This document shows, in pieces, positions 1-36,679 of a stretch of 36,679 nt of DNA. Numbering within the stretch: position 1 is the stretch's first letter; the number at the start of each line of letters is the position of its first letter. The stretch is taken from the IMG/VR virus record IMGVR_UViG_2579778919_000010; one strand, 5' to 3'. The notes under the pieces were generated by a model. It was given only the letters and a program-made list of their open reading frames with translations, had not been told where the DNA came from and ran no database searches. A program made the translations under genes and the position numbers. This stretch comes from a virus (lineage: Duplodnaviria; Heunggongvirae; Uroviricota; Caudoviricetes).

Positions 1-231
1 ATGAGTGAAGGACCAGGCGGGCCACAGGGAGCGACCGCAGGCGGTACGCTGGCAATGCGAATGCTGTCACAGCAGGCGATGGTCGCCAGCCAGATGAAAC
101 GGGCAGCCAACGACAAAGCCATTGCACAGATGTTGGCATCAAAAAAGTCTGGCCCCCCCGCCGCCAGGCTGGGTGCCGCGCGCCAATCAAAACGCGACAC
201 ATTGACAACTAACATTGGATCGCGTTTGTGA
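1..231 (+). pseudogene. 5' part of a gene split by the prophage insertion. Codons 1-57 are native; the last 19 codons (174..231) are read out of the prophage terminus until a stop
   Basis: ORF is open from the ATG at 1 (an upstream frame ends with TGA at 2-4, giving an ATGA overlap) and crosses the inferred junction at 173/174. Joined to 33070..33832 it reads ...SGPPAARLG/DEIQHKSFLGALAGAVLGAIV..., recreating AARxxDxxxH followed by hydrophobic helices. An internal ATG at 130 would put the motif at residues 11-20. Confidence 0.6.
169..173. repeat. Target-site duplication CTGGG, copy next to the prophage right (R) end
   Basis: CTGGG at 169-173 directly precedes TG at 174; the same pentamer is at 33065-33069 directly after CA at 33063-33064. 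Mu-type transposition makes 5-bp duplications. Confidence 0.6.
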
Positions 232-238: not shown

Positions 239-793
239 TTATATGTCAGATGCTGGGAATCGTTTGTACAGAGTTGAGATTCCGACGTCATAAATTAGGG
301 CCACCCTCTGACGAGTTTCGCCAGCCGCTAACAATCTTCCAGCCTGCGCCCACTGTTCAGGTGTTAACTTAGGTCTTCGACCTCCCACGCGCCCCTCAGC
401 TCGCGCAGCAGCCAGACCTGCACGTGTACGTTCAACAATCAGTTCACGTTCCATCTCGGCCAATGCCCCCATAACATGAAAAAAGAAGCGCCCCATTGGC
501 GATGAAGTATCTATGCTGTCAGTCAGACTTTTAAAGTTGATACCTCGCTCGCGTAGTTCTTCCACCAGTCCAACCAGATGACGCATGCTGCGTCCGAGGC
601 GATCAAGCTTCCAGACCACGAGGGTGTCACCTTCAGATAGCGTTCTGAGTACCCGTTTTAGTCCGGGTCTGTCTGAGGTTCTGCCGCTTATCTTGTCTTC
701 AAAAATCAGCTCACATCCTGCACATTCCAGCGCATTACGCTGTAATGCCGTGTTCTGGTCATTTGTTGATACACGTACATAGCCAATAAGCAT
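239..793 (-). CDS. gin: Serine DNA invertase, Gin/Pin/Hin/Cin family
   Basis: Translation from MLIGYVRVSTNDQNT... with catalytic-serine motif YVRVS, GDTLVVWKLDRLGRS and C-terminal HTH (ALIYDVGISTLYKR). ORF track begins 12 codons upstream at 829; the conserved N-terminus argues for 793. Confidence 0.93.
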   Translation of the reverse strand: MLIGYVRVSTNDQNTALQRNALECAGCELIFEDKISGRTSDRPGLKRVLRTLSEGDTLVVWKLDRLGRSMRHLVGLVEELRERGINFKSLTDSIDTSSPMGRFFFHVMGALAEMERELIVERTRAGLAAARAEGRVGGRRPKLTPEQWAQAGRLLAAGETRQRVALIYDVGISTLYKRFPASDI

Positions 794-847
794 GGTTAAA
801 CTCACTTTAAATGGCGGGAATAATGCCATTTGAGCGACTAACGATCA

Positions 848-873
848 TTATCGAAAACGTTGGTTTAATTGGT
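848..873. repeat. gix/hix-like invertase crossover site A, next to gin
   Basis: TTATCGAAAACG-TT-GGTTTAATTGGT: left half matches the hix/gix half-site TTATCAAAAACC in 10 of 12 positions; about 55 bp upstream of the gin start; inverted relative to site B. Confidence 0.6.
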
Positions 874-1446
874 AAATCAAATCGTCGTAATCGTAGACCG
901 GCATCTGATGAACTGGACATGCTCATTGAAGGTCTTCAACAACGATCTACACATAAATGCTCAAAAATTCCGTTCGTTGATATCCTCAAATTTTCTGTGT
1001 GGTCATGTATGCGAATCGGTGAAGTATGCCGATTACGATGGGAGGATCTCGATCAGGAACAAAAATCCATACTCGTAAGAGACAGGAAAGATCCACGTAA
1101 AAAGGAAGGCAACCATATGAAAGTAGCCTTGCTTGGGGAAGCCTGGGATATCGTCCAACGACAACCCAAAAAATCAGAATTCATTTTTCCATATAACAGC
1201 ACTTCTGTTACTGCGGGATTCCAGAGGGTAAGAAGCAAATTAGGTATTAAAGATCTGCGATACCATGATTTGCGTAGAGAAGGGGCAAGTCGCTTATTTG
1301 AGGCTGGTTTTAGTATTGAGGAAGTCGCCCAGGTTACAGGGCATCGTTCATTAAACGTGCTATGGCAGGTATATACCGAACTGTATCCGAAATCTTTACA
1401 TAATCGTTTTGAAGAGCTCCAAAGGAGCAGAAATAAGACCTCTTGA
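862..1446 (+). pseudogene. Tyrosine recombinase catalytic-domain remnant (no N-terminal domain, no own start) in the alternate arm of the invertible segment
   Basis: MRIGEVCRLRWEDLD (box I-like), DLRYHDLRREGASRLFEAGFSIEEVAQVTGHRS (box II-like) and a conserved Y in LWQVYTELY. The ORF-track N-terminus 811-861 lies outside the segment over the gin promoter/site A and is discounted. Confidence 0.55.
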
Positions 1447-1507
1447 CACTGTTTATCCATACAGTTAAAAATAATACTGTATACAACCACAGTATAGAGG
1501 GACTTTT
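1443..1507 (+). promoter_or_regulatory. LexA-regulated promoter: -35 TTGACA, -10-like TAAAAA(T), two SOS boxes
   Basis: TTGACA at 1443-1448; CTGT-N8-ACAG at 1449-1464 (cactgtttatccatacagtt) and at 1477-1492 (tactgtatacaaccacagta); AGAGGGA Shine-Dalgarno before the ATG at 1508. Confidence 0.7.
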
Positions 1508-2038
1508 ATGCGTATTGAAATCTGCATAGCCAAAGAAAAAATGACTAAAATGCCAACCGGTGCTGTGGATGCGTTAAAGGAAGAATTAACCCGACGCATC
1601 AGTAAACGTTATGACGATGTAGAGGTGATCGTAAAAGCCACCAGCAACGATGGCCTTTCTGTTACACGCACCGCAGATAAGGATTCTGCAAAAACTTTTG
1701 TTCAGGAGACTCTGAAAGATACCTGGGAATCTGCTGACGAGTGGTTTGTTCAGAGTCGGTTCTTACTGCATCCTTTTCACTGGGGATTGATGGGCCCAAG
1801 CGTGGATCACTCACGCGTCAGTGAGTGGAGCGCGTGTCTCAATAATGACCTGGAGCGTTTTGTCGATATTTTGGAGAGTCAGATTGAGCTCAGTAAGAGC
1901 CGCAATGAGTGGAAGGAGGTTATCTCCGCCGCCACCATAGCCAATGCCTCCACAGCTCTGGATTGGGGGATGGTTCACGAGGTTGCCGCCGCCACTTACC
2001 CGCAGGCACCCGGCACATACTGGTGGATTAACTGTTAA
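1508..2038 (+). CDS. DinI-like protein with an unusual ~95-residue C-terminal extension
   Basis: First ~81 residues [31 protein letters not shown]...[15 protein letters not shown] resemble E. coli DinI; ORF runs on to 176 aa with no stop where DinI normally ends. Confidence 0.7.
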
Positions 2039-32073: not shown

Positions 32074-32302
32074 TCTGCGATCCTTAAATGTTTACACGTT
32101 CAGGTCAGCAATATCGCTAACCACTACGAGTAAAGATTAGAACACAAAAGAACGAAAGTAAATACTTTTGCGTACTTTTATGGTTGATGAGGTTAACCAT
32201 GATATTTTATTTAAAATCAAATCGTTACTTGATTTTCCGTGGTTAATCACAAAAAAGTACCAGATGTATTTTTCAATAACACAGAAAAGTACGGTGAATG
32301 AT
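32074..32302. promoter_or_regulatory. Early operator / divergent promoter region between ner and c
   Basis: AT-rich; repeated TACTTTT / AAAGTA elements (cgaaagtaaatacttttgcgtacttttatgg, aaaagtaccag, gaaaagtacgg) resembling Mu repressor-binding repeats. Confidence 0.55.
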
Positions 32303-32767
32303 ATGGTTGATTTTAGTGAATGGGTGTCAGTTCAGGATTGTATTGGTCTACCAGGTTTCCCCAGTGGAGCGCCGAATGTCCGGCGGAAACTGGAACAACT
32401 TGTGAGTAATAATCCTAAGTTGAAACGTAAGAAGGCTAAATCGAAAGCATATGAATATCATGTATCGGTCTTGCCAGAAGAAACAAAGAAATTCTTGGGG
32501 GTAGAAGAGCGCTCAGTTATACCTGACTCAGCCTTATCGTCACCAAGCTCAACAGCTCGGGACCTATGGATAATGCTTTTCGACAACTTAACAGAGCGTC
32601 AAAAACAGTATGTTATTAAGGTTTTCATGCAAGGTGGGCTGAACGCTTTAATGCCGATGGTAGCTGATTTGGAAGCCAGTGCAGATAGAGAGATTTTTGA
32701 ACAACGTGATCCCAATGAACAGATTCAAGCCGCGCCGAAGCTGAGCACGCGAAATAAAGCTGGCTGA
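32303..32767 (+). CDS. c: Repressor c (Repc-like), with N-terminal DNA-binding domain paralogous to the transposase N-terminus
   Basis: DFSEWVSVQDCIGLPGFPSGAPNVRRKLEQL...AKSKAYEYHVSVLPEE parallels the A N-terminus [29 protein letters not shown]...[14 protein letters not shown]. Start uncertain: 32168, 32264 and 32303 are all in frame; upstream candidates overlap operator-like repeats. Confidence 0.65.
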   Translation: MVDFSEWVSVQDCIGLPGFPSGAPNVRRKLEQLVSNNPKLKRKKAKSKAYEYHVSVLPEETKKFLGVEERSVIPDSALSSPSSTARDLWIMLFDNLTERQKQYVIKVFMQGGLNALMPMVADLEASADREIFEQRDPNEQIQAAPKLSTRNKAG

Positions 32768-33064
32768 TTGCAAAAGTGCTCAATTGGCTGGCTTTACCTT
32801 CGCACCTCCTGTGGGCATTTTAAGCTGAGTTTAAATCCCGTTAAACGCTTTGAAATTAACTGCTATACGATCCAAATCTATGTGACACTTAACTGGCTTC
32901 GCTATCGAATGATCCAAAATTGACGATATGCCAGATTTTCCACAAGTCGAGTAGCTTAACGTTGTGCGAAGCCTCACAACTCAAGCCTTCCTCCCGTTAA
33001 TTCCCATGAATTCCCGGTTATTCCCGGGTTCTCTGTTTGATCCATACATCACTGTCACTAGTCA
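32768..33064. promoter_or_regulatory. Prophage left-end (attL-like) terminal region
   Basis: Non-coding stretch between the c stop and the inferred CA terminus; contains three exactly 10-bp-phased ATTCCC repeats (33000, 33010, 33020) and GATCCAAA(T/A) repeats. Confidence 0.45.
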
Positions 33065-33069
33065 CTGGG
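33065..33069. repeat. Target-site duplication CTGGG, copy next to the prophage left (L) end
   Basis: Identical to 169-173; follows CA at 33063-33064. Confidence 0.6.
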
Positions 33070-33832
33070 CGATGAAATTCAGCACAAGAGTTTTTTGGGG
33101 GCGCTGGCAGGGGCCGTACTGGGGGCGATAGTGACCATCGCAGAAGGTTGCCTGATTATGGCCGCCTGTGCCACCGGCCCTTATGCGCTGGTTCTGGTGC
33201 CTGCGCTGATGTATGCCAGCTATAAGGCGAGTGATTATGTGGAGGAGAAACAGAACCAGCTTGAATCATGGATAAACAGCTTTTGTGACACGGACGGCGC
33301 CATCAATACCGGTTCTGAAAACGTAAAAATTAACGGCGAGCTGGCCGCACGTGCAGCGGTCACCCTTCCCCCTCCTCCCCCACCTGGAGCAATACCTGAA
33401 GTCCCACAGGGGGAACCCTCATGGGGTGATATTGCCACTGACCTGCTTGAATCGGCAGCGGAAAAAGCAGTACCACTGGCGAAGGCCTGGGGGAACGCTG
33501 TTATCACCCTGACGGACAGCAATGCCGGTTTTATGGATCGCGTCAGCGCCGGCGCATCGCTTCTGTTTCCCGCCGGTCCGGTATTAATGGAGTTTGCCAC
33601 CATGGTGGGCGGGCGTGGCGAAATCAAAAAAGAGGTGGATTTCCCGGAAGCCGGTGAGGACACGGCGCTCTGCGACAAGGAGAACAAACCACCGAGGATA
33701 GGCGCGATCACTTTCATCTACTCCGTTACAAAGCGAGGCTGGGTATTTCCCGGCCTTTCTGTTATCAGAAATCCACTGAAAGCACAGCGGCTGGCTGAGG
33801 CGATAAATAATAAACGGGGGCTGTATGACTGA
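33070..33832 (+). pseudogene. 3' part of the split gene: hydrophobic helices, a PAAR-like motif and a C-terminal domain of unknown function
   Basis: Frame open from the junction (DEIQHKSFLGALAGAVLGAIVTIAEGCLIMAACATGPYALVLVPALMY...NVKINGELAARAAV...PPPPPPG...); the ORF track shows only the TTG-initiated part from 33095; stop overlaps the dam-like start by 8 nt. Confidence 0.6.
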
Positions 33833-34382
33833 TTTCACCGGAAGCAATACTCCTGCCGAACATCGCGACAGCTGGCGCACACCACCAGAGATTTTTGCTG
33901 CGCTTAATGCAGAGTTCGTTTTTCAACTTGATGCTGCCGCCAGCGAAAAAAACCGACTATGTCGGCTTTTTATCTCACAGGAGCAGAACACATTAACCAC
34001 TTCATGGCCTGAAGCAATGGGATATGCCTCTGGTTATGTCTGGTTGAATCCACCATACAGCAATATTTCCCCTTTTGTGAAAAAGGCAGCCACTGAAAAC
34101 AAATTCAGTAGTGTGGGATGTGTAATGTTATTGCCTGCTGACACATCTGTCGGATGGTTTCATGAAGCGATACAAACCGCCAGTGAGGTCAGATTCATCA
34201 CGGCAGGACGACTGGCATTTATTAACCCACTCACTGAGAAACCCGTCAGTGGAAATAATAAAGGCTCGATGCTCATTATCTGGCACCCATACCCCCGTAC
34301 ACACTGCCACTTTACGACCGTTGATCGTGGAGAGTTGATGGCGTTCGGCTCAAGGATTCTTGCCCGTCGGGAGGCTGCATGA
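33825..34382 (+). CDS. Phage-type DNA N6-adenine methyltransferase (Dam family)
   Basis: WRTPPEIF...LDAAAS...VWLNPPYS (NPPY motif IV)...LLPADTSVGWF; 185 aa. Confidence 0.8.
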   Translation: MTDFTGSNTPAEHRDSWRTPPEIFAALNAEFVFQLDAAASEKNRLCRLFISQEQNTLTTSWPEAMGYASGYVWLNPPYSNISPFVKKAATENKFSSVGCVMLLPADTSVGWFHEAIQTASEVRFITAGRLAFINPLTEKPVSGNNKGSMLIIWHPYPRTHCHFTTVDRGELMAFGSRILARREAA

Positions 34383-34462
34383 CAACCACGGAATGCATTT
34401 TTCTGGCAGCGGGCTTCATATTCTGTGTGCTTATGCTTGCCGACATGGGACTTGTTCAATGA
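34379..34462 (+). CDS. Putative 27-aa hydrophobic peptide, translationally coupled on both sides
   Basis: ATGACAACCACGGAATGCATTTTTCTGGCAGCGGGCTTCATATTCTGTGTGCTTATGCTTGCCGACATGGGACTTGTTCAATGA encodes MTTTECIFLAAGFIFCVLMLADMGLVQ; ATGA overlaps with the dam stop and with the next start. Confidence 0.4.
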   Translation: MTTTECIFLAAGFIFCVLMLADMGLVQ

Positions 34463-34674
34463 CACCTCAGCAGGAAAACGCCCTTCGCAGCATTGCCCGT
34501 CAGGCTAATTCTGAAATCAAAAAAGCCAGACAGCAGTTTCCGGATAAAAACGTCGATGACATTTGCCGTAGCGTACTTAAGAAGCACCGCGAAACGGTAA
34601 CGCTGATGGGATTCACACCGACTCATTTAAGCCTGGCGATCGGCATGTTAAACGGCGTCTTTAAGGAACGGTGA
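34459..34674 (+). CDS. Hypothetical small protein
   Basis: Start MTPQQENALRSIARQ... coupled to the upstream peptide; ORF track extends it 5' to 34360. Confidence 0.5.
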   Translation: MTPQQENALRSIARQANSEIKKARQQFPDKNVDDICRSVLKKHRETVTLMGFTPTHLSLAIGMLNGVFKER

Positions 34675-34772
34675 ACATGAAAAGCAAAATCATCAGGGAG
34701 CTACAGGCTCCTTTTTTATTGTTCGCATTCATCCTCAAGCGTATTAACCAACAATTCAGGGATTAATGGAAG

Positions 34773-34991
34773 ATGGCAGACATCATTGATTCAGCATCAG
34801 AAATCGAAGAATTACAGCGCAATACAGCAATAAAAATGCGTCGTCAGAACTACCAGACTGTATCCGCAACTCATTGTTGTGAGTGTGGCGATCCGATAGA
34901 TGAGCGAAGACGCCTGGCTGTTCAGGGTTGTCGGACTTGTGCAAGTTGCCAGGAGGAGATCGAACTTAAGAACAAACAATGGGGACTGTGA
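34773..34991 (+). CDS. TraR/DksA-family C4 zinc-finger protein
   Basis: CCECGDPIDERRR...CRTCASCQ, a four-cysteine zinc-finger arrangement. Confidence 0.75.
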   Translation: MADIIDSASEIEELQRNTAIKMRRQNYQTVSATHCCECGDPIDERRRLAVQGCRTCASCQEEIELKNKQWGL

Positions 34992-35038
34992 TGGCCTCAA
35001 AGCAGCAAATTTCAACATCGTCCAACTGAGGTGTAAAA

Positions 35039-35317
35039 ATGTTCAGAATCATTTTTCCTAACACCTGGTACGTCGACCACCACGGCACTCCCTGCAAAAT
35101 CCTGCGTTCTACCCACAACAAAGTTCACTACATCCGAAAAGGCAGAACATGTATCGCCAGCATGTTCCGCTTTAATCATGACTTTGAACCTGTGAATAAA
35201 GCTGATGCAGATCGGATAGCAGAAGAGATCGAAACGGCAGAACACATTAAGAAGTTACGTGACATGCGTTCAAAAAGCAGAGGTAACCATGGAATCATAC
35301 AGCCTCACACTCGATGA
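35039..35317 (+). CDS. Hypothetical protein
   Basis: 92-aa ORF upstream of xis. Confidence 0.45.
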   Translation: MFRIIFPNTWYVDHHGTPCKILRSTHNKVHYIRKGRTCIASMFRFNHDFEPVNKADADRIAEEIETAEHIKKLRDMRSKSRGNHGIIQPHTR

Positions 35318-35660
35318 GGCCTGTCAGTTTCTTAAGATATCCAGACCAACCGCCACCAACTGGATACGAACAGGCCGCCTACAGGCAACACGTAAAGATC
35401 CAACCAAGCCAAAATCTCCTTACCTCACAACACGGCAAGCCTGCATTGCGGCGCTTCAGTCTCCGCTGCATACTGTCCAGGTGAGCGCGGGTGATGGCAT
35501 AACAGAGGAAAGAAAATGTCACTCTTCCGCAGAAATGAAATATGGTATGCCTCGTATTCGCTCCCGGGCGGGAAACGAATTAAGGAATCTCTTGGCACAA
35601 AGGACAAGCGGCAAGCTCAGGAGTTGCACGACAAGCGAAAAGCAGAACTCTGGCGAGTAG
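35289..35660 (+). CDS. xis: Excisionase-like DNA-binding protein
   Basis: [37 protein letters not shown]... HTH; directly upstream of and overlapping int. The 3' end is uncertain because the frame runs 145 nt into int. Confidence 0.6.
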
Positions 35661-36679
35661 AAAAGCTAGGGGATTTACCTGATGTCACTTTTGAAGAGGC
35701 CTGCCTAAGATGGCTTGAGGAAAAAGCTGATAAAAAATCTCTCGATTCAGATAAAAGCCGGATTGAGTTCTGGCTTGAACATTTTGAGGGTATAAGGCTT
35801 AAAGATATCTCGGAGGCAAAGATTTACTCTGCTGTAAGCAGAATGCATAACAGAAAGACGAAAGAAATATGGAAACAGAAAGTTCAGGCCGCCATCAGGA
35901 AAGGTAAAGAACTGCCTGTTTATGAACCAAAGCCAGTATCAACTCAGACAAAGGCAAAGCATCTTGCCATGATAAAGGCCATTCTCCGTGCTGCAGAACG
36001 CGACTGGAAGTGGCTGGAAAAAGCGCCTGTCATCAAGATACCAGCGGTCAGAAACAAGCGAGTCAGATGGCTGGAAAAGGAGGAAGCAAAACGCCTTATT
36101 GATGAGTGCCCCGAACCACTGAAATCTGTCGTCAAGTTTGCGCTGGCAACTGGTCTGAGAAAGTCGAACATCATAAATCTGGAATGGCAACAAATCGACA
36201 TGCAGCGACGAGTTGCCTGGGTGAATCCAGAAGAGAGCAAATCAAACCGCGCCATTGGTGTGGCGCTGAACGATACCGCCTGTAAAGTGTTGCGTGATCA
36301 AATAGGCAAGCATCACAAATGGGTGTTTGTACATACCAAGGCGGCTAAGCGAGCAGATGGAACATCAACGCCTGCGGTCAGGAAGATGCGCATCGACAGC
36401 AAGACATCATGGCTATCAGCTTGTCGTCGTGCAGGAATTGAAGATTTCCGTTTCCATGACCTCAGACACACCTGGGCAAGCTGGCTGATTCAGTCAGGCG
36501 TCCCATTATCAGTGCTTCAGGAAATGGGCGGATGGGAGTCCATAGAAATGGTTCGTAGGTATGCTCACCTTGCGCCTAATCATTTGACAGAGCATGCGAG
36601 GAAAATAGACGACATTTTTGGTGATAATGTCCCAAATATGTCCCACTCTGGAATTATGGAGGATATAAAGAAGGCGTAA
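35516..36679 (+). CDS. int: Tyrosine integrase (phage lambda-family; resembles the DLP12 IntD lineage as recalled)
   Basis: 387 aa; catalytic motifs ...[41 protein letters not shown]...; window ends at its stop codon. Confidence 0.9.

Follow-up and report, generated by a model that had tools for sequence, protein, structure and literature searches.

A Mu-like prophage in the analysed DNA (36,679 nucleotides, hereafter the window) carried four direct hexamer boxes with GGA cores in 10-bp phase shortly inside its left end, and comparison with related sequences led us to propose that these boxes are probably the site (pac) by which the phage DNA is recognized for packaging. The array was non-random, specific in both orientation and position, and conserved from Mu to phages of Haemophilus, Vibrio and Burkholderia. 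From these comparisons we infer that the array would be bound by gp27, the small terminase, and that packaging would require it. The window array would then probably represent a further Mu-type pac site, a known kind of element, whereas its conserved four-box architecture and the link to the gp27 family are apparently undescribed in the literature, as far as could be checked.

The prophage and its left end

The prophage occupied positions 174-33064 of the window on the minus strand (32.9 kb). Its junctions with the host, between 33064 and 33065 and between 173 and 174, were placed by megablast against complete E. coli genomes: host Rhs sequence stops at 173 and restarts at 33065, and prophage copies elsewhere begin exactly at 174 and 33064. 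The prophage starts with 5'-TG at either end and is flanked by a short target-site duplication (Table 1). Its insertion has split an Rhs-family toxin gene, with host flanks at 1-173 and 33065-36679, and intact versions of these flanks are common in E. coli. Besides the genes in Table 1 a B-like ATPase gene was present, and the small terminase gene lay directly upstream of that of the large terminase. A structure model of the small terminase showed an N-terminal three-helix domain followed by long helices. At the right end a Gin-like serine recombinase and adjoining, oppositely oriented short ORFs (239-829, minus strand, and 811-2038, plus strand) had a layout resembling the invertible tail-fibre (G) segment of Mu. 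The right end had no mom-like region, and the prophage was about 4 kb shorter than Mu.

Table 1. Features of the prophage and of its left end (window positions; phage positions count from the left terminus)
Feature	Position	Strand	Remarks
Four-box array, proposed pac recognition element	32990-33025	-	phage 40-75; GGGAAT-N4-GGGAAT-N4-GGGAAT-N4-GGGAGG on phage strand
Box 1, GGGAAT	33020-33025	-	phage 40-45
Box 2, GGGAAT	33010-33015	-	phage 50-55
Box 3, GGGAAT	33000-33005	-	phage 60-65
Box 4, GGGAGG	32990-32995	-	phage 70-75; CCTCCC on + strand; same phase; absent from preliminary description
Putative terminal transposase-binding site L1, GTGACAGTGATGTATGGATCAAACAGAGAAC	33028-33057	-	abuts box 1; assigned by analogy with L1 of Mu/D108
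Putative L2 site	32897-32925	-	TGGATC core at 32911-32916, kept as (T/A)GATC in relatives; putative assignment
Putative L3 site, GTCACATAGATTTGGATC...	32857-32886	-	one mismatch to end motif; putative assignment
Short hairpin, GTTGTG-N8-CACAAC	32961-32980		directly inboard of box 4
Left terminus of prophage	33063-33064	-	5'-TG on phage strand; megablast junction
5-bp target-site duplication, CTGGG	169-173	+	second copy at 33065-33069; flanks prophage
Right end with putative R1/R2 sites	174-221	+	junction between 173 and 174; end-motif match at 204-221
MuA-family transposase, 660 aa	29855-31837	-	Pfam DDE_2, HTH_Tnp_Mu_1/2, Mu-transpos_C; 51% identity to MuA
Mu c-type repressor	32168-32767	+	Pfam HTH_Tnp_Mu_1; position relative to Mu; transcription toward left end
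gp27-family small terminase, 192 aa	21292-21870	-	Pfam PF11985, E = 5.7e-57; PHROG 426 'terminase small subunit', E = 1e-68
Large terminase, 527 aa	19712-21295	-	Pfam Terminase_6N; 80% identity to Kp4866-3 homologue

The array sits at the left, repressor-proximal end of the phage, inboard of the putative terminal transposase site. A preliminary description of this DNA had drawn attention to three ATTCCC repeats on the plus strand (taATTCCCatgaATTCCCggttATTCCCggg), starting at 33000, 33010 and 33020, one helical turn apart, and had placed them 40-65 bp inside the left terminus, where they would read GGGAAT three times on the phage strand. Each of these statements was borne out: the 26-nt pattern ATTCCC-N4-ATTCCC-N4-ATTCCC occurred once in the window and in none of 100 dinucleotide-preserving shuffles, and the megablast junction puts the three repeats at the phage positions of boxes 1 to 3. 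The fourth box extends the array in the same phase. Taken as a single hexamer, GGGAWT showed no enrichment, with 46 matches in the window where 39 were expected, and the signal therefore lies in phasing and clustering. Scored with a weight matrix built from other loci only, the array was the best match in the whole window on either strand (31.5 bits).

Putative transposase sites flank the array. The end motif GACA-N8-TGGATC occurred at 33039-33056, 32869-32886 and 204-221, and was identical at the left terminal site and the right end. The boxes fall between the putative L1 core (phage 21-26) and the putative L2 core (149-154), with another internal core at 191, an arrangement that mirrors the L1...L2-L3 layout of Mu. 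No GGA box array was found at the right end of the prophage by a relaxed phased-GGA scan or by the weight-matrix scan.

A terminator scan reported a hairpin (CCCGG-N6-CCGGG with a T-rich tail) at 33013-33028 on the plus strand, raising the question of whether the repeats might belong to an intrinsic terminator that ends outward transcription from the repressor gene, or to a chance palindrome. However, this was one weak candidate where 0.7 were expected in shuffles, it covers just two of the four boxes, and its stem relies on CCGGG flanks that are peculiar to the window phage and are missing in Mu and most relatives despite their phased boxes. A terminator at boxes 1 and 2, neither significant nor conserved, was set aside as a highly improbable explanation of the array.

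From the spacing of the repeats the preliminary description had concluded that a protein binds them on one face of the helix, and had proposed the transposase, IHF or HU. An IHF binding site had nothing in its favour except the part that IHF plays in the biology of Mu generally, and with no match to the WATCAANNNNTTR consensus anywhere in the left end (32768-33064) we give IHF next to no chance of being the binder. The only match to the IHF consensus in the window (AATCAAATCGTTA, 32215-32227, plus strand) fell within the 5' portion of the repressor gene, close to the location of the operator/enhancer region in Mu.

Conservation of the array among Mu-like phages

The left-end DNA had no blastn match in the phage collection, Mu included, and because homology at the DNA level was too low relatives were gathered via the transposase and the terminase. 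Eighty loci were fetched via the transposase, with one genome per species; these transposase-anchored loci stop short of the terminase genes, and all scanned sequence together came to 708 kb. Four GGA cores at exact 10-bp phase occurred 22 times in the 708 kb (0.05 in shuffles), each time in a run of four and no more. The inward-reading strand held all 22 runs, with a TG-initial, terminus-like sequence some 33-45 bp before each. When one imperfect box was allowed, the inward-reading strand had 45 matches and the opposite strand none. With the weight matrix the array was recovered in 57 of the 80 transposase-anchored loci, scoring above every opposite-strand match, and several of the remaining 23 were short contigs that lack the end. 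The taxa that bear it span many Gammaproteobacteria and include Kluyvera, Phytobacter, Citrobacter, Sodalis, Erwinia and Vibrio, as well as Aeromonas, Rheinheimera, Shewanella, Haemophilus, Avibacterium and Mannheimia.

Columns that played no part in the selection were conserved too. Among 20 distinct perfect arrays, G preceded box 1 in 18, while the box-4 core was preceded by T in 18 and by G in all 20 (TGGGA in 18); the window array is one of the two with C in place of that T. Bases between the boxes vary freely while the GGA cores and the flanking G and T are nearly invariant. In Mu itself the boxes read GGGAGG, TGGATT, GGGATC and GGGATT and start at positions 33, 43, 53 and 63 (span 33-68), in exact 10-bp phase and outside the transposase sites annotated for D108 (11-27 and 156-172).

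At closer range, two E. coli prophages with left ends 72% identical to that of the window kept sGGAr in all four boxes with no indel in the array, and box 4 was invariant in both. One of these, in ECONIH5, has a gp27 98% identical to that of the window and a left end 72.7% identical, with the phase and the sGGAr cores kept and no indels. Since its terminase is nearly the same yet its boxes are altered, the same terminase would seem to accept GGGAAT, CGGAAA, GGGAGT and AGGAAA. The conservation among close relatives on which the preliminary description had made its case depend thus took another form than the one foreseen: the exact ATTCCC hexamer is lost even at 72% identity, whereas the phased GGA core is retained. 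Both prophages (ECONIH5 and LR536431) are mosaic with respect to the window, their right ends and gp27 being 98-98.5% identical and their left end and repressor region 72% identical, which implies recombination between early and late modules.

More divergent boxes were found by the weight-matrix scan in loci from Pusillimonas, Bordetella and Billgrantia, where four GGGTT boxes keep the phase. In these three loci, some 40 bp in from the predicted left end, GGGTT or GGGTC stands in place of GGGAW (for example, CCGGGTCTATGTGGGTTGGCGTGGGTTGATGCGGGCTGA), which suggests an altered recognition specificity; the cognate terminase genes lie outside the fetched loci.

Other features were observed around the left ends. 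Where the window has a short hairpin inboard of box 4, six relatives (L077, L035, L076, L021, L020 and L040) have a GC-rich stem-loop at the same place, and in many relatives the hairpin is longer and precedes a T run on the strand that reads inward, as does GGGGCTTGAGAGAATCTAGCCCCTTTTTT in a Haemophilus prophage. The corresponding sequence of Mu is the palindrome GGCTTGCAAGCC at 80-91. This hairpin may be a terminator, either insulating the prophage from outside transcription or ending the repressor transcript. In the Apirhabdus apintestini locus (L034) some six tandem copies of the heptamer GCAGTTA lie at 1590-1630, in the host flank a few bases outside the prophage left end.

Association of the array with transposase and terminase families

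Phages in which the transposition and packaging modules have been combined differently allowed the array to be compared with each. The Klebsiella phage Kp4866-3 has four perfect boxes at 32-65 and a gp27 and a TerL that are 86% and 80% identical, respectively, to those of the window, whereas its transposase matches that of the window only piecewise, at 25-36% identity, and its end sites differ (TTTGATAY). The transposases of BcepMu and B3 are of the Tn552/rve type and show no detectable similarity to the A protein of the window, and their terminases belong to the PF11985 family; in both phages, the best matrix match in the entire genome was at the left end (position 47 in BcepMu and 46 in B3), directly after the terminal transposase sites. 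The boxes of BcepMu (CGGTAT, CGGGAC, CGGGAT and CGGAAC) have CGG cores in exact 10-bp phase, and those of the Rhodovulum phage vB_RhkS_P1 are also exactly 10-bp phased. Array and PF11985 thus occurred together in Mu, the window, Kp4866-3, HS6, vB_RhkS_P1, BcepMu and B3, across three transposase types, the terminase family of vB_RhkS_P1 being taken from the record annotation and that of HS6 from a tblastn match rather than from a Pfam scan.

In contrast, none of four transposable phages with DUF1804 terminases (D3112, RcapMu, Mannheimia 3927AP2 and Klebsiella Kp4852-3) had an array at the left end, although all four have well-defined TG... left termini. PF11985 was the sole tested family that separated array-positive from array-negative genomes. 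Taken together, the sequences suggest that the array follows the family of the small terminase and not the transposase across three transposase classes, an association that is phylogenetically confounded, since the four DUF1804 phages share a distinct transposase and end type and independent contrasts are few. Four genomes were not informative for this comparison: Shewanella MuM16-2 begins inside the repressor gene, Chromohalobacter YPCBV-1 is partial, the terminus of RS1 is unclear and the Ralstonia YO107_2 record does not end at termini.

These combinations bear directly on the leading candidate of the preliminary description, accessory sites for the MuA-family transposase. The boxes do adjoin the terminal transposase site and lie inside attL, but they are unlike the GACA-N8-TGGATC motif that both ends have in common, do not occur at the right end and lie outside the annotated transposase sites of Mu and D108. 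They also persist where the transposase is only 25-36% identical (Kp4866-3) or of the rve type, and are absent from four phages with MuA-family transposases. Transposase binding is therefore very unlikely to account for the array.

HU binding is structural and without sequence specificity. A second role for the spacer as a bend-promoting element, in which phased G-rich boxes, with A/T-rich segments between them, curve the L1-L2 spacer to one side and so help HU to fold the left end for joint binding of L1, L2 and L3 by the transposase, would be compatible with a role as pac. It would suit the location of the boxes between the putative L1 and L2/L3 sites and the alternation of GGG with AAT/AATT at half-turn intervals in the window array, and the same L1-L2 spacer in Mu, equivalent to the attL stretch that holds the window boxes, is the HU-binding region of the left end in the transpososome (PMC3820752). 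That part of the preliminary description which named HU has this much in its favour. Against it, an HU site would be recognized independently of sequence, whereas arrays of the window type conserve specific bases and follow the terminase family; nearly invariant GGA cores between variable spacers argue for base-specific contacts and not for bendability. Furthermore, the boxes are kept in BcepMu and B3, whose unrelated transposases have a pair of neighbouring terminal sites in place of a Mu-type L1-L2 spacer, and no array is present in the four MuA-family phages whose terminases belong to DUF1804. As the explanation of the boxes, an HU-assisting spacer is thus unlikely, while a dual role of the spacer, in HU-assisted bending during transposition and in terminase recognition late in infection, is plausible.

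Since co-occurrence ties the array to the whole late/packaging module and does not single out gp27, the boxes might alternatively be sites for another protein of the head or packaging module, such as a small protein encoded beside gp27, or a late regulator. We think this rather improbable: D3112 and RcapMu, which have no array, likewise have annotated proteins of the Mor/C and GemA types; PF11985 alone among the tested families separated the genomes with and without it; and what is described for small terminases (PMC4737164) agrees with both the one-turn spacing and the location at the end where packaging starts.

Some phages departed from the common pattern. A Mu-like insert in the Stx phage LC727881 has 10-bp-phased GAGGGT/GTGAAA/GTGAAA and no GGA boxes; its PF11985-like gp27 is 40% identical to that of the window, and its transposase is of the Kp4866-3 type (56% identical to that of Kp4866-3). 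In this Stx2c phage (LC727881.1, 60000-78000) the left end is at 75644 and the spacer reads GAGGGTTTTA GTGAAAGGAG GTGAAATCAC, with a 10-bp period. Both ends of Kp4866-3, with at least three copies per end, and the left end of the Stx phage insert carry transposase-binding repeats AWTTGATAY, a different type that sets a transposase/end subfamily apart within the enterobacterial Mu-like phages. Phasing was imperfect in Vibrio phage martha and in StopSmel. The latter had been considered as a gp27-negative control and was dropped because its protein 27 belongs to PF11985 (Pfam). In Vibrio phage martha 12B12 two separate clusters of GGGAT-type boxes lay on the reverse strand, some 200-290 from the end of the record (GGGAGA/GGGATC/GCGGAC..., then GGGATATAATGGGATT), and an extra small ORF was situated between the left end and a LexA-type repressor.

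Proposed recognition of pac by gp27

The preliminary description appears to have been right in kind that the left end holds a functional element bound on one face of the helix, as both phase and GGA core are kept in very distant relatives, but mostly not in the proteins it put forward; the most likely one is the small terminase. A conspicuous repeat of the window is thereby given a proposed function, and its likely binder shifts from the transposase, IHF or HU to gp27.

The array would lie in the spacer between L1 and L2/L3, at the end where Mu-type headful packaging starts. The gp27-family small terminase would form an oligomer in which the N-terminal helical DNA-binding domains are spaced about one turn of B-DNA apart, so that each of four neighbouring subunits could contact its own GGA box, all from one side of the helix. 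For a cyclic oligomer, direct repeats spaced 10 bp apart are a better match than inverted ones. Binding of gp27 may bend the DNA around the oligomer and thereby position the large terminase to cut the flanking host DNA outside the left end, after which packaging would proceed rightward by headful.

Whether the array might be a general recognition code of the gp27/PF11985 family, kept for the initiation of packaging in transposable phages from Enterobacterales to Burkholderia and alpha-proteobacteria and with any transposase, seems to us an evenly balanced question; lineage-specific changes in the boxes (GGGAT, GGGAA, CGGA, GGGTT and GTGAAA) would in that case reflect co-evolution with the DNA-binding domain of the terminase. 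If such a code is true, four adjacent subunits of the ring would read four successive helical turns base-specifically, and would offer a simple model, open to mutation, of the way in which pac is found by a small terminase, which is still unsettled for SPP1, P22 and T4. About 36 bp of DNA and a protein of 192 aa would make a compact system for studying DNA recognition by an oligomeric small terminase. The comparison shows in the left-end spacer of Mu-like phages four oriented boxes that are strongly conserved and that go with the terminase family even where the transposition modules are unrelated. As a sequence signature, the array could be used to find, in the genome of a host, the end of a Mu-like prophage from which packaging starts and its exact left terminus, and could predict which mini-elements or satellites might be packaged by which helper.

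Comparison with known packaging sites

The closest known counterpart is the pac site of Mu. Groenen and van de Putte (1985, Virology 144:520) reportedly mapped it by deletion to about nucleotides 35-58, and Harel et al. are said to have mapped it to about nucleotides 32-54 in 1990; this interval (about 32-58) would cover Mu boxes 1-3. A pac feature was not annotated in the records of Mu, D108 or M64097, and we know of no description of the internal box structure of Mu pac. Both elements adjoin the terminal transposase site on its inner side, at the end with the c repressor, both consist of four direct GGA-core boxes in 10-bp phase (33-68 in Mu, 40-75 in the window), and both occur with a terminase of the gp27/PF11985 family, that of Mu being 44% identical to that of the window. 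They differ in the sequences of the boxes (GGGAGG/TGGATT/GGGATC/GGGATT in Mu, three times GGGAAT and GGGAGG in the window) and in position, the window array beginning 7 bp further in.

Short direct repeats read by a small terminase near the initial cut are also known from P1 pac, with its clustered hexanucleotide repeats, and from lambda cosB, where gpNu1 binds the R sites. In P1 the repeats need to be methylated and lambda uses IHF, and neither site is located inside a transposon end. The motifs, numbers and spacings of their repeats differ from those of the window array.

Small terminases form rings with a circumference of about 300 Å in which adjacent helix-turn-helix motifs are about one turn of B-DNA apart, compatible with wrapping of DNA (Greive et al. 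2016, PMC4737164). The isolated DNA-binding domain of the SF6/SPP1 small terminase showed little sequence specificity for the pac repeats, and conformational selection was proposed instead (PMC4737164). Base-specific reading of boxes is therefore no general rule among small terminases. The 'wrap' model of SPP1/SF6 pac shares with the array proposed here the direct repeats, an oligomeric ring with motifs one turn apart, and regularly spaced protection (PMC4737164). The small terminases of SPP1/SF6 are unrelated in protein family to gp27, and while repeats there add little to binding by the isolated domain, in Mu-like phages the base-specific cores are conserved over large distances.
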